Of a DNA stretch of 64,000 bases, positions 19,696-29,500 are shown piece by piece. Source of the DNA: Acidobacteriota bacterium (lineage in GTDB: Bacteria > Acidobacteriota > Polarisedimenticolia > J045); NCBI GenBank assembly GCA_030949985.1, contig JAUZRX010000010.1:85148-149147 (forward strand), given 5' to 3'. The notes beneath the pieces are model-generated. The model saw only the letters and a list, made by a program, of their open reading frames with translations. It was not told the DNA's origin and did no database searches. The translations under genes and the position numbers were made by a program. The first letter of the stretch is position 1; every line of letters starts with the position of its first letter.

Positions 19696-19745
19696 AAGCA
19701 CAATATCTAGTGGCTCCCCCCTGCGATCACCCAATATATAGCATT
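19696..19745. promoter_or_regulatory. Tandem NrdR boxes (NrdR operator) upstream of nrdJ
   Basis: Two imperfect palindromes AAGCACAATATCTAGTGG (19696-19713) and CACCCAATATATAGCATT (19728-19745) match the NrdR box consensus acaCwAtATaTwGtgt. Centre-to-centre spacing 31 bp (three helical turns), in an unusually AT-rich patch 280-400 bp upstream of the nrdJ start. Confidence 0.6.
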
Positions 19746-19946
19746 TTCAAGGCTTTAGCCTGCCGGCCGGGAGAAGCGACGCCCGCTGGGGGACCGGCAA
19801 CGGGGAGCCGCCAGCCTCCCCGGGCATTGACAGCGTATCAAAGGCGAAACTGCGAATCCCCCGACACTCCGGCCGGCGCCCTGCCGGCAACAGTCTCCGG
19901 AGATTGGACAGGGAACGCGGGCCATGCTATAACCCGCCGTCCCCGT

Positions 19947-20021
19947 GGGGCGTTAACTCAGTGGTAGAGTGCCATCTTCACACGGTGGAAGTCGTAGGTT
20001 CAAATCCTACACGCCCCACCA
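19947..20021 (+). tRNA. tRNA-Val (anticodon CAC)
   Basis: GGGGCGT/ACGCCCC acceptor, D-arm ACTCAGTGGTAGAGT, anticodon stem CCATC/GGTGG with loop UUCACAC, T-loop TTCAAAT, 3' ACCA. Confidence 0.85.
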
Positions 20022-20082: not shown

Positions 20083-20158
20083 GGGCCGCTAGCTCAGTTG
20101 GGAGAGCGCCGCGTTCGCAACGCGGAGGTCGAGGGTTCGAGTCCCTTGCGGTCCACCA
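20083..20158 (+). tRNA. tRNA-Ala (anticodon CGC) with G3:U70 identity pair
   Basis: GGGCCGC/GCGGTCC acceptor gives the G3:U70 wobble diagnostic of tRNA-Ala. Anticodon loop UUCGCAA, T-loop TTCGAGT, CCA encoded. Confidence 0.85.
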
Positions 20159-20374
20159 TACTCTCTCCCGCCGCCGGCTCATGCATCCTGCACCCGCTGA
20201 CACTTCGCGGCACCCCGGTGTCACGCCGCGTCACTCCATGCCGGCCAGGCTGGCACGCGCGCCAGATTGGCGCGGCCGGCGACACCTGGAGCGGACAGTT
20301 CGCCAGCCCCCGAACCCTTTCTCCTGCGATTGTTTCCATCTCGAAAGAGCCTTTCTGTGGCTTCCGAGGATACC

Positions 20375-20390
20375 TGGCATTAGGTTTGCA
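20375..20390 (+). promoter_or_regulatory. Near-consensus sigma-54 (-24/-12) promoter TGGCAT-N5-TTGCA
   Basis: TGGCATTAGGTTTGCA: GG and GC at the canonical positions 2-3 and 14-15 (consensus TGGCAC-N5-TTGCW). Predicted TSS about 20401. Confidence 0.5.
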
Positions 20391-20400
20391 CTAAAGAGGG

Positions 20401-20456
20401 GCGACTGGCTCCTTTTCCTCTACCAACTTCGACCCCCCGGCGGGGTCGTTTTTTTT
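20401..20456 (+). ncRNA. Candidate tiny sigma-54-dependent transcript (about 55 nt), C/U-rich 5' part plus intrinsic terminator
   Basis: Interval between the predicted sigma-54 TSS and the terminator T-run. No ORF. Would read GCGACUGGCUCCUUUUCCUCUACCAACUU + terminator hairpin. Confidence 0.25.
20430..20456 (+). terminator. Rho-independent terminator (CGACCCC-CCGGC-GGGGTCG + T8)
   Basis: 7-bp GC-rich stem, 5-nt loop, followed by eight consecutive T. Lies downstream of the tRNA-Val/tRNA-Ala pair and of the sigma-54 promoter. Confidence 0.7.
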
Positions 20457-20570
20457 GACCCCGCCCCCAAGGCCCTTCCCGCCGGGACTTTCCGACCCGC
20501 CCCAGGTTCCGGCCCGCCCCCCCATCCGCCGCTCCCCCTTTCTCCACCGGCCTGCACCGCCACCGCTTCA

Positions 20571-20588
20571 CTGTTGCACTCTGCAACG
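20571..20588. promoter_or_regulatory. Palindrome CTGTTGCA-CTC-TGCAACG (copy 1), 21 bp upstream of the STPK-bEBP start codon
   Basis: TGT-N11-ACA / TTGCA-N3-TGCAA dyad of the length typical for enhancer-binding-protein sites. Same motif recurs at 26086-26104. Confidence 0.45.
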
Positions 20589-20608
20589 TCGCGGGGCATA
20601 AGGGGTCC

Positions 20609-23600
20609 ATGAAAAAGCCCCGACAACCACCCTCCCCCGAAGAAGCACCCCGGATCATCGCCGGACGCTACGAAATCCTCGGACGCCTGGGAGCCGGCGC
20701 AGCCGCGCAGGTCTATCGGGTCCGCGACACCGTCGGCGGCGGGACGCTGGCTCTCAAGCTGTTGGCCGGCAGCGATGGCCGCGAGTCCCCGGCCCTGATC
20801 CGGGCCTTCCACCACGAGTTTCAGCTCCTGACCCGCCTGCGTCACCCTCACTTGGTGCAGGTCCACGACTTCGGCGTGCAGCAGCCCGGAGGCGAGGGTG
20901 TGGCGGTGCCCTGGTTCACCATGGACCTGGTTCCCGGTCATCCCGTGGACGAAGTGCTCGGAGCCTCCCCCGACTGGGCCTGCCTGGCCCGGGTCGCCGA
21001 CGCGGTGCTCGATGCCCTCGGCTCCCTCCACGCCCAGGGGCTGGTCCACCGCGACGTGACACCCGCCAACATCCTCGTCGGCCCGGAGATGGAGCGGGAT
21101 CCGCCGCCGGTGTGGCTGATGGACCTGGGGCTGGCCGAAAGCGCGGCCAGCGTCGATGCGGGCCGGATCCGCGGCACCCTGGCCACTGTCGCCCCGGAAA
21201 CCCTGCGGGGCGGAGCGGTCGATGGCCGGGCGGACCTCTACTCCCTGGGCTGTGTTCTCTTCCGCCTGGCCACCGGCGAGGACCCGTTCAGCGGCAACAC
21301 ACCCTTCGAGATCCTGCGGGCGCACCTGTCCACCCGCCCCACCCCACCGCGGCACCTCAACCCGGAGGTGCCTGCCAGCCTGGAGGCCCTGATCCTCGAA
21401 CTGCTGGCCAAGCAACCGGAGCAACGCCCGTCCACCGCCGACGAGGTGCGCCGCCGCCTGGCCGGCCTGTCCGGACGCCACCCCCAGCGCCTGCCTCCCC
21501 TGGCGGAACCCTTGACGCCGGCCCTCGCCGGTCGAGAGCGGGAGATCGAACTGTTCCGCACGGCTCTCGAAGACCTCTCCCGGGAGCGGGGCGCCGTGCT
21601 CCTGGTGGAAAGCGAGCCGGGCATGGGCCGCTCCCGACTGCTCGAGGAGTTCCGGCTGCTGGCCCGTCTTTCCGGACGGCCGGCGCTGCTGATCCGCGGA
21701 GCCGAGGCGCCCCGCCGGCCCTTCGGCCTCGCCGACACCATGCTCGCGCACCTGGCCAGCGGCGGGGGGGGGCAGGCCGACACCCTCCAGGCCCGGGACC
21801 TGGACTCCCGGGCCGAACGGTTCAGCCGCCACCTCGTGGGACGGGAGAGCGTCCTGCTGATCGACGATCTCCATGCCGCCGACGCCGCCTCGGTAACCCT
21901 GGTCGAAGACCTCGCGCGGCGCATCCCCCGGGCGGGACTCCCCTGCCTGATGGTAGCCACCGTGGCGGGCGACGGACTGCCGCTGAAAGACGTGTTGCTC
22001 GAACAGGGTCTGGCCCGGCTGCTGCGACTGCGCCCCCTGGACGAGGCGGCCACCGGCCGACTGGGCGCCACGATGCTGGGGGAGAGCCTGCTGCCCGAAC
22101 CCTGGCAGCGAGCCCTCCACCGGGCCAGCGGTGGCGTGCCCGCCGCAGCAGTGGACATGGTCACGGCCCTGGTGCGCTCGGGCAAGGCCGGGCCGGGTGC
22201 GCCCCTGCCCGAAGCCGTACCGGCAGAACTGGCCGAGGGCCGCCTGGTCTCGCCCCGTTCCACCCAGCGCCTCGATGCCCAGTGGGAGCAGTGGCCGGCC
22301 GGTAGTCGGGCCGTGCTCGCGGCCCTGGCCCTGGCCGAAGGGGAGAGCCTGGACTTCGACGAACTGGAAGCCATCGAGCCCCACTCGGCCACCCACCCCG
22401 ACGATATCGACCTGCTGGTCCGGGAGGGCCTGGTGCGCCGGGTCCGGCGAGCGGAAGGCCGGCTGGGACTCGCCCTGGCCGTCCCCGCCCTGGCCGAAGC
22501 CATCGTCGCCCGCCTGCCGGCCGGGGCGCTCGAGTCGCTCCACCTGCGCCGGGCCGAGTGCCTGGCCGGACAAGAGGGCCGCCAGCTCCAGCAGGCCAGA
22601 CACCTTCTCGCCGCCGGGCAGACCGAGAGGGGAGCCCGCCTGCTGGTGGAAGCGGCCGCCGCGGCCCTGGACGCCGGCACACCCCGGCAGGCCCTCGGCC
22701 TCTGCGACCGGGCGCTGGCCGTCCTGGGGGAGGTGGAAGACGCCTCCCTGCTCCAGCGCCTGCGGCGTATCCGGGCCTCCGCCCTGGCCGCCCTCGGTCA
22801 TCCCGAGGACGCCGCCGCCGAGTACGGCCGGGCCCTCGCCATCGTCGGGGCCGAGACTGCGGAACTCTCCCGCACCCTGCGGGCGGCCGGCACCTTCCAC
22901 GGAGAAACCGGAAAAATCGACACGGCCCTCGACCAGCTCGAACAGGCCCTGGCCCTCAGTGACGAGTTGGGGGACACGGCGGGGGGCGCGGGGGTCCTGC
23001 TGGAGATGGGACGCCTGCTGGCCGCCATGGGCCGCCTGGCGGACGCGGCCGAGCGTCTCGAGACCGGGCTGCGCCAGGCACGACGCGCGGGGCAGGCCCA
23101 CCTCGTCGCCGCCCTGCTGCTGGCCCGCGGAGACCTGGCTCTCCGCGAGGGCCAGCTCGAGCGGGCCCAGGAGTGCTACCGGGAAGCCGAACAGGAATCC
23201 CTCGGCACCGGCTCCACGGCCGGCCGCCACGCCGCCCGGCGCGGTCGCGTGCTGGCCATGGAGGCCTCGGGCCGACTGGGAGACGCCCTCGAAGCCCTCG
23301 ACGACCTGCTGGCCGACGCCCGGCGCACCGGCCACCAGGGACGAGAGGCCGAGGCCCAGGCCCTGACCGGAAGGCTGCTCGGCCGCCTCGGACGCCGTTC
23401 GGAGGCGGTCGGCCGCCTTTCCCAGGCCGCCACCCTCTATCGCAGGCTGGGACGCAGCGCCCCCGCCGCCGAGGTGCTCGCCGAGCAGGCCGAACGCCTC
23501 GGTGAACTCGGGCGCCTGCGCGTCGCCCTGACCCGGGCCGGGGAGGCCCGGGCTCTGGCCCAGGAGGCCCGTTCGGAACCCGCCGCCAACGCCGCGGCCT

Positions 23601-25861
23601 TCGCGCTGGGCACGTTGCACGCCTTCCTCGGTGACGTGGAGGCGGTGCACGAGGCCCTCTCACGCCTGGGCCGGGCCGAAGCCCCCCTTTTCCGGGCCCG
23701 GCGCTCGCTGCTGCTGGGCCGGGCGCACCTGGCGGCGGGCCAGCCCGACCGGGCCCGGGAACTGCTGCAGGAGTGCTCCTTCCTGGCTCGCCGCGTTCGC
23801 CTGTCGGAACTGGAAGTCCAGGGGCTGGTCGGGCTGGCGGAAAGTTACCTCGCCCTGCGCGACGAAGAGCGCGCCGGGCTGGCCCTGAAGAAGATTCGCG
23901 CCGAGGCGGAAAAGGGAGGCCAGGAAGAGATGGTGGCCTGCGCCCGCTTGCTGGCGGCCGAATTGGAACTGGCCCAGCCGGGAGGCGAGATGAGCCTGGC
24001 CCGGGACGAGGCGCTCGCCGCCGCCGAGGTGCTCGCGCGCCGGGAGCGCTCCGACCTGGCCTGGCGGGCCTGGGCCGCCGCCGCCACCGCCTGCCGGCGC
24101 CTGGGGGAGGTCGACGGCGCCGCCCGCTGCGAGCGGGACGCCATCGCCGGCCTCGACGCCCTGCTCGAGGGCCTCCCCGGCCCCCAACGTACCCGCTGGA
24201 GGGCGCAGCCGCGGGTGCGCTCCCTGCTGGCCGCCGCCGGTGCGGAAAACGCTGGATACCGGGCGGCCCCCGAAAGCCAGGCAGCCCCCGAGACCACCCG
24301 GCAGGTCCAGGCCCTCGAACGCCTGCTCGAGATCAACCGGGCCCTCAACTCCACTCTCGAACTCGAACGCCTGCTCGAGATCCTGGTCGATACCGCCATC
24401 GAGCTGACCGGGGCGGAGCGGGGCTTCGTCCTTCTCGAGGAAGGCGGCGACACCGCCGCGGAACTGGCCCGCCGGGAGGGGGGCGTGGACCTGGCCGGCG
24501 AGGAACGCGAGTTCAGCCGCTCGGTGGCGCGGCAGGTGATCCGCGACGACAAGCCCCTGGCCTCCCACGACGCCCAGACCGACGAACGGCTGAGCGACTC
24601 CCGCTCGATTCACGCCCTGCAGATCCACTCGATCCTGGCCCACCCCCTGCGGGTGCGCGGCAAGGTCGTCGGCGCCATCGTCACCGACTCCCGCAAGCCC
24701 ATGGCCCTCTTCGACCAGTCGAGCCAGACCTGGCTTTCCCGCCTGGCGGACCAGGCGGGCATCGCCCTGGCCAACGCCCGCCTGGTCACCCAGCTCCGCA
24801 CCCAGGCCGAGGAGATCCGCCGCCTGAACGAGCAGCTCGCCGAACAGGTGGAAGAGCAGCGCGTGGAGATCCTCGAAAAGCAGTCCAACCTGGAAGTGCG
24901 GTATCGCTACGACTGCATGATCGGCGCGTCGAACCCGATGCAGAAGGTCTACCGGGCCATCGACAAGATCCTGCCCACCGAGATCCCGGTGCTGGTCACC
25001 GGTGAATCCGGTACCGGCAAGGACCTGGTGGCCCGGGTGCTGCATTACAACGGCCCGCGCAGCGAGCAGCGCTTCGTGACCGTCAACTGCGCGGCCCTGA
25101 CCGACACCCTGCTCGAGTCGGAACTCTTCGGCCACCGCAGGGGCTCGTTCACGGGGGCCGACCGGGATCGCAAGGGCCTGTTCGAGCAGGCCCACCAGGG
25201 CACCCTCTTCCTCGACGAGATCGGTGAGATGCCCCTGCACCTGCAGCCCAAACTGCTGCGGGCGATCCAGTTCGGCGAGATCCGCCGGGTGGGGGAAGAC
25301 ACCGACCGCCGGGTGGACGTGCGTATCGTGGCGGCGACCAACCGGGACCTGTCGGAGATGGTCGCCGCGGGCAAGTTCCGCGAAGACCTCTTCTACCGCC
25401 TGGACGTGGCCCAGGTTCACATGGCTCCCCTGCGCGAGCGCCTCGAGGACCTGGGCCTGCTGGTGGGCCACTTCCTCGAGCACGCAGCGAAGAAGACGGG
25501 GCAGGCGCCGAAGTCCATCGAACCCCCCGCTCTGCGTCTTTTCCTGCGCTACGACTGGCCGGGTAACGTCCGGGAACTGGAGAACGAAGTCACCAAGCTC
25601 GCCGCCTTCACCCGGGGCGAAGTGATCACCGAGCTGGACGTGCTGGAAAACGCTGCTTTCCTCGAGCGCGCGCGGGCCCGCCAGGCCGGCCGCCCCCGGG
25701 ACGAGAGCATCAGCACTCTCGAAGCCACCGAACTCGAGCAGATCCGCCAGGCCCTGGCCACCGCCGGAGGTAACCGGACTCGCGCCGCGGAGATGCTCGG
25801 CATCGACCGCTCCACCCTCTACCGCAAGCTCAAGCGCTACGCCGATCGCCTCGACCCCTAG
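20609..25861 (+). CDS. 1,750-aa fusion: Ser/Thr protein kinase - NTPase/TPR scaffold - GAF - sigma-54 interaction (AAA+) domain - Fis-type HTH (enhancer-binding protein)
   Basis: Kinase subdomains (LAGSDGRESPALIRAFHHEF..., HRDVTPANILV, DLGLA, APE-like TVAPETLRG); P-loop-like EPGMGRSRLLEEF and long TPR/helical region; GAF (LERLLEINRALNSTLELERLLEILVDTA...); sigma-54 AAA+ with Walker A GESGTGKDLVARVLH, ESELFGH, GSFTGA (GAFTGA variant) and R-finger region; C-terminal HTH (NRTRAAEMLGIDRSTLYRKLKRY). AAGGGG RBS 7 nt before ATG. Confidence 0.85.
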   Translation: MKKPRQPPSPEEAPRIIAGRYEILGRLGAGAAAQVYRVRDTVGGGTLALKLLAGSDGRESPALIRAFHHEFQLLTRLRHPHLVQVHDFGVQQPGGEGVAVPWFTMDLVPGHPVDEVLGASPDWACLARVADAVLDALGSLHAQGLVHRDVTPANILVGPEMERDPPPVWLMDLGLAESAASVDAGRIRGTLATVAPETLRGGAVDGRADLYSLGCVLFRLATGEDPFSGNTPFEILRAHLSTRPTPPRHLNPEVPASLEALILELLAKQPEQRPSTADEVRRRLAGLSGRHPQRLPPLAEPLTPALAGREREIELFRTALEDLSRERGAVLLVESEPGMGRSRLLEEFRLLARLSGRPALLIRGAEAPRRPFGLADTMLAHLASGGGGQADTLQARDLDSRAERFSRHLVGRESVLLIDDLHAADAASVTLVEDLARRIPRAGLPCLMVATVAGDGLPLKDVLLEQGLARLLRLRPLDEAATGRLGATMLGESLLPEPWQRALHRASGGVPAAAVDMVTALVRSGKAGPGAPLPEAVPAELAEGRLVSPRSTQRLDAQWEQWPAGSRAVLAALALAEGESLDFDELEAIEPHSATHPDDIDLLVREGLVRRVRRAEGRLGLALAVPALAEAIVARLPAGALESLHLRRAECLAGQEGRQLQQARHLLAAGQTERGARLLVEAAAAALDAGTPRQALGLCDRALAVLGEVEDASLLQRLRRIRASALAALGHPEDAAAEYGRALAIVGAETAELSRTLRAAGTFHGETGKIDTALDQLEQALALSDELGDTAGGAGVLLEMGRLLAAMGRLADAAERLETGLRQARRAGQAHLVAALLLARGDLALREGQLERAQECYREAEQESLGTGSTAGRHAARRGRVLAMEASGRLGDALEALDDLLADARRTGHQGREAEAQALTGRLLGRLGRRSEAVGRLSQAATLYRRLGRSAPAAEVLAEQAERLGELGRLRVALTRAGEARALAQEARSEPAANAAAFALGTLHAFLGDVEAVHEALSRLGRAEAPLFRARRSLLLGRAHLAAGQPDRARELLQECSFLARRVRLSELEVQGLVGLAESYLALRDEERAGLALKKIRAEAEKGGQEEMVACARLLAAELELAQPGGEMSLARDEALAAAEVLARRERSDLAWRAWAAAATACRRLGEVDGAARCERDAIAGLDALLEGLPGPQRTRWRAQPRVRSLLAAAGAENAGYRAAPESQAAPETTRQVQALERLLEINRALNSTLELERLLEILVDTAIELTGAERGFVLLEEGGDTAAELARREGGVDLAGEEREFSRSVARQVIRDDKPLASHDAQTDERLSDSRSIHALQIHSILAHPLRVRGKVVGAIVTDSRKPMALFDQSSQTWLSRLADQAGIALANARLVTQLRTQAEEIRRLNEQLAEQVEEQRVEILEKQSNLEVRYRYDCMIGASNPMQKVYRAIDKILPTEIPVLVTGESGTGKDLVARVLHYNGPRSEQRFVTVNCAALTDTLLESELFGHRRGSFTGADRDRKGLFEQAHQGTLFLDEIGEMPLHLQPKLLRAIQFGEIRRVGEDTDRRVDVRIVAATNRDLSEMVAAGKFREDLFYRLDVAQVHMAPLRERLEDLGLLVGHFLEHAAKKTGQAPKSIEPPALRLFLRYDWPGNVRELENEVTKLAAFTRGEVITELDVLENAAFLERARARQAGRPRDESISTLEATELEQIRQALATAGGNRTRAAEMLGIDRSTLYRKLKRYADRLDP

Positions 25862-26085
25862 CAGCCCGCTGAAAAAGCCGACATCCCCGCCCGGGAGCCG
25901 AAGTTCGGCTTCCCGGGTCCACGGTCCGGGTTGTTGTCTTCGGCTCGCCGCCCTGTGCAAAGAAGCTCCGCAAGCGGTTCGAAACCGGCGGTTCGACCGC
26001 CAGGCCTCTCGAGCGCCGGGAGCAGCGTCTTCACCGAAGCGCTCCCGCCGCCGTGAACGCGATCCGGGGCCACCGGCTGACTGTT

Positions 26086-26104
26086 GCAAGCTGCAACAGC
26101 GGTG
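26086..26104. promoter_or_regulatory. Palindrome CTGTTGCA-AGC-TGCAACAG (copy 2; candidate enhancer/UAS) plus extra TGCAAC half-site at 26115-26120
   Basis: Perfect 8+3+8 dyad. Centre lies about 111 bp upstream of the -24 element of the sigma-54 promoter at 26205, the typical UAS-to-promoter distance for bEBPs. Confidence 0.5.
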
Positions 26105-26204
26105 GGGAGTGCAACGGTGCAGTGGAGGGAGACACAGCCCCGCATGCTGCCCGAAATTGTTCGTATTAGTTGTAAATAGGCCGTTTTCAGGCTAGCGACG
26201 AAAC

Positions 26205-26220
26205 TGGTACGGTGATTGCT
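26205..26220 (+). promoter_or_regulatory. Sigma-54 (-24/-12) promoter TGGTAC-N5-TTGCT
   Basis: TGGTACGGTGATTGCT with GG/GC at canonical positions; one mismatch to TGGCAC. Located in the lowest-GC stretch of a 600-bp ORF-free region; predicted TSS about 26231. Confidence 0.55.
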
Positions 26221-26230
26221 CTATGTCAGG

Positions 26231-26460
26231 GCGCGAAGGCGGAAAGACCCGACAAGGGGTGGCCGGAGGGTAGGAAAAACCCAGTTGCGACCCACGCAAC
26301 CGATGCAGCGCCCAGCCCGATGCCAAAGGGTCGAAAGACCCAAGCCCCCTAACCTTCGGTACCCCTTGTCGGGGCCTACTTGACAGCAAGCGCACGCCGA
26401 ACCGGCTCGAAGATAGTTTCCTTGGTACAGAAAGCCCGCCTCTCCCCCTGGCGGGCTTTT
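26231..26460 (+). ncRNA. Candidate sigma-54-dependent structured RNA (about 230 nt): sRNA or terminator-containing leader of the downstream HK operon
   Basis: No credible ORF. Long-range helix GACCCGACAAGGGG/CCCCUUGUCGGGG enclosing hairpins GUUGCG-ACCCA-CGCAAC and GGGUC-GAAA-GACCC (GNRA tetraloop); repeated GAAAGACCC motif; ends in an intrinsic terminator. Confidence 0.35.
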
Positions 26461-26463
26461 CTG
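26431..26463 (+). terminator. Rho-independent terminator (AAAGCCCGCC-loop-GGCGGGCUUU + UUUUCUGUGUG)
   Basis: 10-bp stem, 9-nt loop, T-rich tail. Sits about 50 nt upstream of the sensor kinase start codon, so could also act as an attenuator. Confidence 0.65.
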
Positions 26464-26509
26464 TGTGTTCGTAGCTGTTTCGAGGGCGCCGGAGCGCTAT
26501 CATCCGGCG

Positions 26510-29500
26510 ATGATGAACCAGCGCCCCGGCACGCGGCCTTCACCGCGCTCGGCCGTTCTCCTGCCGGCGGCCCTGGCGCTGGCCTGCGGCCTGTTGCCCT
26601 ACCGCCGGGCGGCCTGGGCGGCCGCCGCGCTGGTCCTGTGGGCGCTGGTGTTCCTGCTGGCGACCTGGAGCCGCCAGCCGCGGTCGCGCCTGCTGCCGGC
26701 GGTGCTCCTGGTGCTCGGCGGCCTGGCCACCACCCCCGAATGGCGCCCGGTTCCCGGGCCCGACCATTTCCTCGCCCCGGCCGCCGAGCAGGTGCAGCAG
26801 CGATGGCGGGAGCAGGTCGAAATCCTCGACGCGGCGGTGGCGCCGCCCCCCCCGGCCGGTGGCGACTACGCCTGGCTCGACCAGCGCCGGCAGAGCCTCG
26901 GAGAGCGTGGCGGCCTGACGGTGCTGCCCGAGGGGGGAGGCCCGCCGCTGGGCTGGTCCGGCTGGACCACGCCCCTCGCCGCCGGGGAACGAGCACGGCT
27001 CGCGGCGAGCCTCGCCCCCGGCCCGGCCCTGATGGTCCTGCGCCGCGGCCTGAGCCTGCGCCTGGTCTGCGCCCGGCGCTACACCGACCCCGCCCGCTGG
27101 CTGGTGGCCGAGATCGCACTTCCCCCGGAGCCCGCCCCGGGCCCCCTGGGCGGAGGGCTCGGGCCCCACGTGCAGGCGCGGCTGCGCTGGGAAGCCGTGG
27201 GCGAAGGCATCCAGGCCGAGATCGGCGGTACCGACGAGGGGACCGCCCCCGCCTTCTGGTCCATGATCCCCCTCCAGGCTCCCGACGGCAGCCTGATGGC
27301 CCGGGCGACCCTGACCCAGTCCCCCCCCGAGGTGATCGCCCGGGACCACGCCCGCAGGCGCCAAGGCCTCTTCGGCCTGCTCGGCACCCTGTGGCTGATC
27401 GCCACCGCCATGGCCGGCGGGCGCGGCGGCGCCCTGCGCCTGGCGGTGGCGCGAGGGGTCTGGCTGGTGGCCCAGCCGGCGCCGCTGCTGGGTCTCGGCA
27501 GCGCCGCCACGGCGCCCTGGCTCCCGGAGACGCTGCTCCCAACCCACCCATGGGCCCGCTGGCTGGCCGAAGGGCTGGTCGGCCGGCCCCTGGACGCGGC
27601 CCTGACGGGCCTGGCCCTCGCCGGCGTATCCGCCCTGGTGGGCCTGCCTCTCTCGCCCCGACGGCGCCGCGGGATCGGCATCGGCGGACTGGCCCTGGCG
27701 GGGACCGGCCTGGGCCTGGTCCATCGCCTGACCCTCGCCACGGAACTCTCCCCGGGTGCGGTGGTGCTCCCCGAAGGAGGCGGCGTGGTGGCAGCGCTGC
27801 TGATGGTCGCCCTGGCCGCACTCCCCTGGGCGGGTTTTCAGCTCGCCCTGCGCTGCCTCGGCAGCGCCGTGGGAGGTCGCACATGGCTGGCCGCGGCCCT
27901 GCTGGCGGGGCTGACGGCAGGCTCCGTCCACGCCCTGACCCTGCCCGCGGCCGGGCGCCAGAGGGCCGTGCGCGAGTTGGCACCGGAGCTGCTGCAGCGG
28001 GGATGGACCTGGGAGAACGCCCTGCTCGAAACCCTGGCCCTGGCCGTTCCTCCCGACCGCCGGCCGGTGCTGGCCCGGGAGCGGGATGCCATCGACCTGT
28101 GGTGGAACTCGCCCCTCGGCCGGATGGGCCTGGCGTCGGGGGTCTGGAAATACGACGCCCGGGGGCGCGTGGTGGACCGCTTCATCACCGGCGTTCCCCC
28201 GGTGGACCCCGAACCGCGCCTGGTGGCCGCCGACCTCGAAGACGGCCCGACCGGCCCCTTTCCCCGGCGCTTCGATGCCCCCGAAGTGGAGACCCAGCGC
28301 TTCGTCGAGGGCCAGTTCCGGCTGGTGCGGGCGGAGGTCCTGCGTCCCGACGGTGGAAGCTGGGTCGCGGCCATCCTGGCCGAGCCCGGAAACATCCCCT
28401 CCCGCCGAGCCGACGACCCTCTCGGCGCGGCGATCCGGGCCGAGACCGACAAGCCGATCCTTCCCCGCCGGGGGGCCCTCGAGCCCCGGCTCGCCTGGTT
28501 CGACCCGGCGGGACATCTTCTCCACTCGGAGTTGGAGGCCGGCCCTCCCGCGCCCCTCGCCCCCCCCACCGCTCCCCGCTGGCGCCGGATCCACGAGCCG
28601 GGCTCCCGCGGCTACGACGTCTACGAGGTGGCGGACGCCACGGGGACCCTCTGCCTGGCAGTCGTGCCGCCGGGGCTGCTGGAGATGGCGGCGATTCCCG
28701 TGGGCTGGGCGGTGAGCCTGCTGGCCGGTGCCCTGCTGACCCTCGCCCTGCACCGTATCGAGCAGGATCCCCGTGGCGCGGTGCTGGGCGTCTTCCCCCG
28801 CCTGCGGGCGGCGGCGGGGCGCTTTGGCGTGCAGGTCGGCCTGGTGCTGGTCGTCGCGGGCCTGGCTCCACTGTTGGCCCTGGCCGGGGCGGGGCGCGCG
28901 GCGGCCTCGGCCCAGGCCCATCAGCGCCTGACCTCCGACGGTCGGCGCACGGCTCACTTCGCCCGTCGCCTGGTGGAGGACTACCTGGCCCTGGGGGAAG
29001 GCGAACCCCTGGCAGCCACCGACGCGGAACCCATTGCCGCCTGGCTGGCCCGCACCCTGGGCGAGAACCTCTTTCTTTGGCGTGACGGTGCCCTCGCCGC
29101 CGGTAGCCGCAGCGACCTGGTCAGAGCCGGCCTGTGGCCCGAACGACTGCCCGGGCGCACCTGGCGCGAGCTGACCCTCGGCCGCCGTCCCCTGCTGATC
29201 CGGCGGGAGGGCCTGCTCTCGGCGGCCGCCTCGGGCGCGGCGGTGGTCTACAGTCCCTACCGGGGGCCCGACGGCAACCCCGGTGTGCTGACCATTCCTC
29301 TCGCCCGCGCAGGCCGGCGCTATGCCGAGAGCCTGGCCGACATGGACCGGGCGCTGCTGGTCAGCACGGCCCTGCTGCTGGCCCTTTCCTTCGCCCTGCT
29401 GCGTCCGGCCACCCGTCGGCTGGTCCGCCCCCTCTCCCAGCTCGAGCAGGCCACCGGCCGCCTGGCGGCCGGCCACTTCGACTCGCCGATTCCCGTGGCG

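Follow-up and report, generated by a model that had tools for sequence, protein, structure and literature searches.

We analysed a stretch of 64,000 nucleotides (nt) from the genome of an Acidobacteriota bacterium (Polarisedimenticolia, J045; GenBank assembly GCA_030949985.1, contig JAUZRX010000010.1, positions 85,148 to 149,147 of the forward strand), hereafter the window, and focused on a sigma-54 promoter that lies between a tRNA-Ala gene and the gene of a sigma-54 activator and is followed, after a short C/U-rich segment, by an intrinsic terminator (20375–20456). This unit is probably the gene of a very small RNA (sRNA), here called sRNA1; a second, larger RNA, sRNA2, was predicted beyond the activator gene. 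The gene order around sRNA1 was conserved among related loci and ran from ribonucleotide reductase through tRNA-Val, tRNA-Ala, sRNA1, the activator, and sRNA2 to a HAMP/HisKA histidine kinase. In the window, the conserved sRNA1 neighbours tRNA-Val(CAC) and tRNA-Ala(CGC), identified with ARAGORN and Rfam, occupy 19947–20021 and 20083–20158 of the plus strand. The activator gene (20609–25861, plus strand) encodes a protein of 1750 amino acids. A preliminary description of this DNA had placed a Ser/Thr kinase fused to an enhancer-binding protein after tRNA-Ala, and the Pfam assignment bore this out and gave the domain order of the protein (Pkinase, AAA_16 of the STAND type, TPR, GAF, Sigma54_activat, and HTH_8). 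The Sigma54_activat domain was matched with an E-value of 1e-69, and the sequence includes a GSFTGA loop, the Walker A motif GESGTGKD, and the helix–turn–helix (HTH) domain HTH_8. Its homologues were full-length and 36–88% identical, and one protein of 100% identity was found in an Acidobacteriota metagenome-assembled genome (MAG). When the C-terminal HTH was aligned with those of close and distant homologues, the helix turned out to be of the type usual in the family and gave no indication of which site the activator binds.

The promoter TGGCATTAGGTTTGCA (20375–20390, plus strand) matched the −24/−12 consensus exactly, with GG at −24, GC at −12, and exact spacing. In the 64-kb window, two exact matches to TGGCAY-N5-TTGCW were found against 0.04 expected from shuffled sequences, an excess of approximately 50-fold. 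The other match, TGGCACGGGGGTTGCT (16286–16271, minus strand), is at least equally canonical; thus, the consensus promoter at 20375–20390 stands as it had been described, but its ranking as the best sigma-54 match in the window is arguable. With +1 placed 12 nt past the C of the −12 GC, the predicted transcript extends from 20401 to 20456 (plus strand) and has a length of about 56 nt, in good agreement with the C/U-rich RNA of about 55 nt proposed previously. Folding predicted an unstructured C/U-rich 5′ arm of about 30 nt, with the invariant core CUCCUUUUCCUCUACCA, in front of a terminator hairpin. The C/U-rich core in the window, CUCCUUUUCCUCUACCAACU (20409–20428, plus strand), is a putative seed that was predicted to be unpaired and was invariant in 10 of 11 aligned copies. 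The terminator (20430–20456, plus strand) is composed of the stem CGACCCC/GGGGTCG at 20430–20448, with six GC pairs among its 7 bp, and a T8 run at 20449–20456; the stem begins 39 nt after the promoter, which bears out the strong terminator reported within 40 nt. In the mechanism that we propose, RNA polymerase with sigma-54 would bind the −24/−12 element, an AAA+ enhancer-binding protein would open the promoter, and the transcript would start near 20401 and end at the GC hairpin and U8. On reading the sequence, no ATG- or GTG-started frame was seen inside the 56 nt on either strand. The complement contains GAGGAAAAGGAG, a strong Shine–Dalgarno look-alike, and a reading of the segment on the minus strand was therefore considered; it was rejected because no start codon lies at a usable distance in any lineage and because the promoter and terminator also point the opposite way.

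To place the window in its comparative context, we used loci that encode activator homologues, numbered with the prefix L. These comprised a close family, in which the activators were 51–88% identical (L001–L009, L016, and L039), and a sister family with 36–37% identity (L037, L038, and L040). In the footprint alignment from the tRNA genes to the activator start, only four islands were conserved, namely an upstream element described below, the promoter, the transcribed stretch of about 56 nt, and a palindrome followed by GCATAAG and the start codon. The GG at −24, the GC at −12, and the spacing between them were fixed in 13 of 13 distinct copies, and the N5 spacer and the stretch from −11 to −1 varied. 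In the close family, conservation begins at the predicted +1, with the consensus G(C/U)GA(A/C)U(G/C)(G/A)CUCCUUUUCCUCUACCA(A/G)CU, and ends at a run of T7–9. The sister-family RNA is longer, at about 95–110 nt, and the only recognisably common part is the C/U-rich motif (GACUGGCUCCUUUCC in L037 and CCCUUUUCCCUUACCAGC in L040). All loci with upstream sequence nonetheless shared the order of −24/−12 promoter, C/U-rich RNA, and terminator hairpin, with a T-run in all except L040. In the window clade, the terminator stem reads CGACCCC/GGGGUCG, versus GGCCCUC/GAGGGCC elsewhere, with the pairing kept; in L022, a U–A pair has changed to U–G. In L039, the sRNA1 gene is duplicated in tandem (2732–2813 and 2846–2919), with a separate promoter and terminator for each copy; the second has become shorter and has a diverged core, GACUCUAUUUUCCUU. 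The tiny sRNA that the preliminary description had offered as one option is thus supported by a promoter, a transcript conserved from its predicted +1, and a terminator that recur together in every relative for which upstream sequence was available.

A covariance model built from 11 copies (R1) gave one strong match per locus, with 65.8 bits and an E-value of 8.5e-15 for the window, and found no second sRNA1 copy within the window. When species-representative genomes were scanned with the seed, 15 matches were obtained, 10 of which were real; all of these were from Acidobacteriota, with one locus per genome. Two of the loci, L017 and L018, derive from one MAG, each from the end of a contig, and seem to represent a single locus. 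The remaining matches were chance occurrences inside genes of other phyla or genera, including one acidobacterial chance match in Sulfomarinibacter (L023). The same scan of metagenome contigs yielded a single real match, identical to L003. Pattern scans of the species-representative genomes and metagenome contigs found the core together with promoter and terminator only in Acidobacteriota. At the gathering thresholds of Rfam 15, whose families include Qrr, GlmY/Z, CrcZ, mmgR, and Acido-1, only the tRNAs passed in the window, and the best sub-threshold match was to suhB/mmgR (18.1 bits versus a gathering score of 41 bits; E = 0.51). A description of either RNA or of the activator family was not found in the literature. 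By its sequence, sRNA1 belongs to no described RNA family; its kind is known, but the family is new.

Two copies of the dyad TGTTGCA-N3-TGCAAC, at 20572–20587 and 26082–26097, bracket the activator gene (0.44 matches expected when up to two mismatches are allowed), and this arrangement, which had been pointed out before, was conserved. Copy 1, CTGTTGCAC-TC-TGCAACG (20571–20589), is a putative operator of the activator gene that ends 21 bp before the ATG at 20609; the operator-like placement ascribed to it was likewise kept in relatives. In 14 of 14 loci, the dyad was followed by 8 nt, (G/T)CATAAG, another 6–7 nt, and ATG or GTG; L006 was a partial exception, in which the dyad and GCATATG are present without a start codon at that spacing, the called start lying about 85 nt downstream. 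This order suggests a sigma-70-like promoter (20574–20611, plus strand), in which TTGCAC (20574–20579) is separated by a 17-nt spacer from CATAAG (20597–20602) and by a further 6 nt from the ATG at 20609. The TTGCAC-N17-CATAAG spacing was kept in the window and in L001–L005, L007–L009, L016, and L039. In the more distant sister family, the −10 element reads TATAAG or TATATG and nothing resembling a Shine–Dalgarno sequence is present, which favours the reading of the box as a −10 element. A sigma-70-type consensus evidently applies in the host organism, as shown by the promoter TTGGAC-N18-TATAAC of the tRNA-Val/tRNA-Ala operon (19904–19933, plus strand), which has the same arrangement in L001. 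The activator mRNA is therefore apparently leaderless, with a predicted start on the start codon. Because the dyad overlaps the −35 element, which lies in its left arm, and the spacer of the predicted sigma-70-type promoter, its position is a repressing one, and a protein bound to copy 1 would repress the leaderless mRNA of the activator. Autoregulation by the activator also fits the situation in L002, where sRNA2 and the kinase are missing downstream but the palindrome at the promoter of the activator is retained. In that genome (GCA_024763475.1, 5283–6941), a sulfatase gene comes directly after that of the activator, so that the module either can do without its downstream half or has had it moved elsewhere.

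Copy 2, CTGTTGCAAGCTGCAACAG (26081–26099), together with an additional TGCAAC half-site at 26110–26115, two helical turns beyond it, forms a putative upstream activating sequence (26081–26115) of a second sigma-54 promoter, TGGTACGGTGATTGCT (26205–26220, plus strand). The latter has one mismatch to the consensus, and its orthologues are canonical, with TGGCAC/T-N5-(T/G)TGCT. The centre of copy 2 was located 104–128 bp upstream of this promoter in 10 of 11 loci and 170 bp upstream in L037, and the distances changed in steps of about 10–11 bp, in helical phase (Rayleigh R = 0.64, p = 0.008). The 7-N3-7 dyad form and the phased position are those of an NtrC-type upstream activating sequence, which makes copy 2 a predicted site of that kind. 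The second promoter is followed by sRNA2 (26231–26466, plus strand), a structured RNA of about 235 nt with a folding z-score of −4.24 and a terminator at 26431–26460. Its conservation starts at its own +1, and compensatory changes were found in 11 of 35 predicted pairs in an alignment of nine sequences; it has no Rfam match. In L003–L005 and L007–L009, the 3′ part of sRNA2 contains (C/U)GAA-N3-CUCCUUUU(C/U)C, a motif that occurred 15 times in about 200 kb of loci and was confined to the two RNAs, and the sRNA2 sites were the next-best matches of the sRNA1 covariance model. Since this C/U-rich motif is common to both RNAs in most relatives, sRNA1 and sRNA2 appear to be siblings. In the simplest model, the kinase-fused activator would bind GTTGCA-N3-TGCAAC, activate sRNA2, and repress itself.

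sRNA2 also has a long-range stem, CCCGACAAGGGG/CCCCUUGUCGGG, with the invariant loops GCGAAGGCGGAAAG and CAGCGCCCAGCCCGAUGCC, and it sits between the activator and histidine kinase genes. The latter starts with TATCAT-CCGGCG-ATG (26498–26512, plus strand), and TATCATCC-N4/5-ATG is kept in relatives; with a −10-like box 6 nt before its start, the kinase gene looks like a second leaderless regulator gene directly after the sRNA2 terminator. In the sister family, an open reading frame of 142–147 amino acids without a Pfam match lies between sRNA2 and the histidine kinase and overlaps the start of the kinase by 4 nt (L037, 8961–9392; L038, 8914–9357; L040, 8341–8769).

With regard to the enhancer that serves sRNA1, a candidate is the upstream element at 20244–20291, which is made up of GCCAGGCTGGC (20244–20254), GCCAGATTGGC (20261–20271), and GACACCTGGAG (20281–20291). 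In relatives, this element takes the form of a cleaner dyad, GCCAGnnTGAC-N7-GTCAnnCTGGC, and repeats of the TTTGGCAC type occur in the sister family. In 11 lineages, its right end was located 63, 65, 75–78, or 84–86 bp before the T of TGGCAC. It was helically phased to the sRNA1 promoter (R = 0.69, p = 0.003), although the p-values of these phasing tests are optimistic because the loci are phylogenetically related. The palindrome, by comparison, was located at variable positions from +163 to +314 relative to the sRNA1 promoter and was unphased (R = 0.05, p = 0.97). The idea, implicit in the preliminary description, that the sRNA1 promoter belongs to the palindrome regulon is weakened by these results, given that it is the other, upstream element that is phased to the promoter. 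The sRNA1 enhancer is more probably this conserved, phased element about 65–105 bp upstream, a classical enhancer position, and because its sequence differs from that of the palindrome, a different or additional regulator is implied.

The alternative that survives best keeps the same sRNA1 and differs in its driver: the kinase-fused neighbour would activate it by looping from the downstream palindrome at about +180, the same dyad repressing the sigma-70 promoter of the activator. This corresponds to the single regulon implied by the preliminary description. Enhancer-binding proteins can act from downstream or distant sites, as known for NtrC, for RocR with its downstream activating sequence, and for FlrC. 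The palindrome is the only site of its type near the sRNA1 promoter and is always 163–314 bp downstream of it, the activator gene and sRNA1 are always adjacent, and the second tandem copy in L039 has no upstream element of its own; moreover, PexR, a member of the same protein class, is a documented dual repressor–activator (PMC12754779). Nevertheless, the distance from this dyad to the sRNA1 promoter is variable and out of phase, whereas its copy at the sRNA2 promoter is in phase, and a different conserved and phased element occupies the classical upstream position. We therefore rank an own upstream enhancer of sRNA1 above activation by the neighbour from the downstream dyad, which we regard as less likely but plausible.

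If transcribed, sRNA1 would most likely pair in trans, through its C/U-rich arm, with purine-rich, Shine–Dalgarno-like mRNA sites of the AAAAGGAG type, since the core is the exact complement of such ribosome-binding sites. An unstructured arm followed by a terminator is the typical build of base-pairing sRNAs. An RNAduplex scan of both strands of the window, whose DNA is GC-rich, gave only GC-driven matches with no link to start codons, and pairing of sRNA1 to the 5′ ends of the activator or kinase was, on inspection by eye, not conserved. It could also be argued that sRNA1 is real but does not pair with mRNAs, and instead titrates a C/U-binding protein or acts on sRNA2. The target search in the 64-kb window found no target, the core is kept in its exact sequence beyond what a short seed usually needs, and the sigma-54-dependent CrcZ and CrcY work by protein sequestration (PMC6296734). 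However, sRNA1 contains one short motif and not a series of protein-binding ones, its arm and terminator are of the base-pairing type, and the search space for targets was just 64 kb; we consider this alternative improbable.

A more far-reaching variant of the pairing function is that sRNA1 mimics the anti-Shine–Dalgarno tail of 16S rRNA, so that its induction by sigma-54 would mask Shine–Dalgarno sites broadly and spare leaderless mRNAs. The 3′ end of 16S rRNA in bacteria generally reads GGAUCACCUCCUUUCU, a general sequence that may differ from that of the host's own 16S rRNA, and the 5′ arm of sRNA1 in L007, L008, L009, and L016 reads GAAUCACUCCUUUUCCUCU (the window equivalent being 20401–20428). 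The spared mRNAs would include that of the activator and apparently that of the histidine kinase (TATCAT-N6-ATG), both of which look leaderless. Such mimicry would make sRNA1 a global switch of translation mode, away from Shine–Dalgarno-led mRNAs, and not a gene-specific regulator; we offer it as a speculative proposal with a slim chance of being correct.

The preliminary description had also suggested that the hairpin and T8 run mainly terminate the tRNA-Val/tRNA-Ala operon and that the sigma-54 promoter drives the activator by attenuation or antitermination read-through, without a stable sRNA. It is true that the window has no strong terminator between tRNA-Ala and 20430, with only a weak 5-bp candidate at 20298–20315, and that promoter, terminator, and activator gene share one strand. 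This reading fails on the comparative evidence, because L003, L004, and L005 have a separate hairpin and T-run directly after tRNA-Ala, because the module persists in L040, in which the tRNA genes are inverted onto the opposite strand while still adjacent to it, because the 100–230 nt that separate the terminator from the activator gene are unconserved and vary in length, and because the activator gene has its own predicted promoter abutting the start codon. It also leaves the invariant 17-nt core unexplained, and the entire promoter–RNA–terminator unit was duplicated in L039; we judge it very unlikely. Finally, a chance juxtaposition of consensus-like motifs without function can practically be dismissed, since, weak as consensus scans alone are (terminator-like sites in the region numbered just 1.6 times the shuffled expectation), exact promoter matches were 50-fold over expectation and the composite was kept as discrete islands across loci in which the flanking protein is only 36–58% identical, so that the comparative data already contradict it.

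Taken together, every element of the preliminary description was present beyond chance expectation, and three features that it missed were found here, namely the element upstream of the sRNA1 promoter, the setting of the palindrome in a leaderless-type promoter, and the conserved sRNA2 of about 235 nt, with the seed motif in most relatives. The joint explanation that we regard as rather probable is that 20375–20456 is a free-standing gene for a sigma-54-dependent sRNA of about 56 nt that acts by base pairing in trans, that palindrome copy 1 is the operator of the activator gene and lies outside the sRNA1 gene despite being only about 180 bp downstream, and that the enhancer of sRNA1 is likely the upstream element. 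Several points weigh against this explanation, in addition to the relatedness of the loci used for phasing. The evidence is wholly computational and comes from MAGs; in the window clade (this genome and L001), the candidate enhancer of sRNA1 has a degenerate sequence; strict column-wise compensation in the short terminator stem was found at one pair only; and the sRNA2 of the window has lost, or diverged from, the common C/U motif. In the near relatives, GCATAAGG(G/A)G (AAGGGG) can also be read as a closely spaced Shine–Dalgarno sequence instead of a −10 element, and within the 64-kb window no site with three or fewer mismatches to the complement of the 16-nt core was found.

Other features of the window were noted outside the module. 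The exact sigma-54 promoter TGGCACGGGGGTTGCT lies between the stop codon of the ribonucleotide reductase gene and a convergent HTH–cupin gene (16286–16183, minus strand), and is followed by a predicted hairpin RNA of about 75 nt that ends in UUCGCUUUUUU (fold −39.8 kcal/mol, z = −2.3); the orthologous gap of L006 is short and showed no counterpart of this hairpin RNA. Two AT-rich boxes, ACAATATCTAGTGG and CCAATATATAGCATT (19699–19745), which precede the class II ribonucleotide reductase gene (minus strand), resemble NrdR boxes, with conservation in L001 and L003.

The Acidobacteriota are an abundant phylum, most of whose members are uncultured, and to our knowledge, essentially nothing is known of their RNA regulators. 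The locus yields two undescribed, conserved, predicted sigma-54-dependent RNAs with clear promoter, terminator, and operator anatomy, which are linked to a one-component sensor of unusual build, in which a eukaryote-like kinase, a STAND ATPase, TPR, and GAF are fused to a sigma-54 activator. It would also be a natural case for studying how a single dyad can be used in sigma-70 repression as well as in sigma-54 activation, and the module is compact enough to be reconstituted in Escherichia coli.

Among known systems, the proposed circuit resembles LuxO/Qrr of Vibrio quorum sensing, in which an NtrC-family sigma-54 activator activates the Qrr sRNAs and represses its own gene, the sRNAs are siblings with a conserved pairing region, and one sRNA gene stands beside the activator gene (PMC3130561). 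The two systems differ in several respects. The RNAs share no sequence or structure similarity, Rfam giving no Qrr match; the activator here has no receiver domain and instead contains a Ser/Thr kinase, a STAND ATPase, TPR, and GAF; and sRNA1 is upstream and co-oriented, not divergent, and about half as long as a Qrr RNA. No feedback from the sRNA to the activator mRNA is apparent here, since that mRNA is apparently leaderless and no complementarity was seen. If confirmed, the locus would carry the LuxO/Qrr type of design, which combines an activator with sibling sRNAs and autorepression, into a new phylum and a new class of sensor.

That sRNA1 precedes the activator gene in the same orientation and has a sibling RNA recalls the GlrK–GlrR/GlmY system of Enterobacteria, in which a sigma-54-dependent sRNA gene is located immediately upstream of, and co-oriented with, the regulator operon and has a homologous sibling sRNA. 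GlmY is about 150–180 nt long and acts by protein mimicry. Unlike GlmY, sRNA1 has no Rfam match, and the adjacent activator is only a candidate driver of it. sRNA2, directly downstream of the activator gene, is more reminiscent of the NtrC/NrsZ and CbrB/CrcZ pairs of Pseudomonas, in which a sigma-54-dependent noncoding RNA with its own upstream sites directly follows the activator gene; RpoN-dependent NrsZ is located downstream of ntrBC (PMC9731577), and CbrB activates CrcZ from multiple subsites (PMC6296734). However, CrcZ sequesters a protein, NrsZ consists of repeated modules, and their activators are two-component response regulators, whereas the present locus has a second RNA, of very small size, in front of its activator gene.

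A counterpart to the dual role that we propose for the palindrome is known from PexR of Myxococcus, a GAF-domain enhancer-binding protein that binds dyad repeats, through which it activates sigma-54 promoters and lowers the activity of a sigma-A promoter (PMC12754779). PexR controls genes of peroxide-defence proteins rather than sRNAs and has a much smaller architecture, and palindrome binding by the activator described here is a prediction. With an unstructured, C/U-rich region for pairing in front of a terminator, sRNA1 is built like C/U-rich sRNAs of the anti-Shine–Dalgarno type, such as mmgR/alpha-r8 and RsaE/RoxS; its match to the mmgR family is sub-threshold, so that it is not a member, and it differs from these sRNAs in phylum, promoter type, and length. 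Against this background, the features of the present locus that stand out are the very small size of sRNA1, its large and structured sibling RNA, the activator fused to kinase, STAND, and GAF domains, and the apparently leaderless regulator genes.

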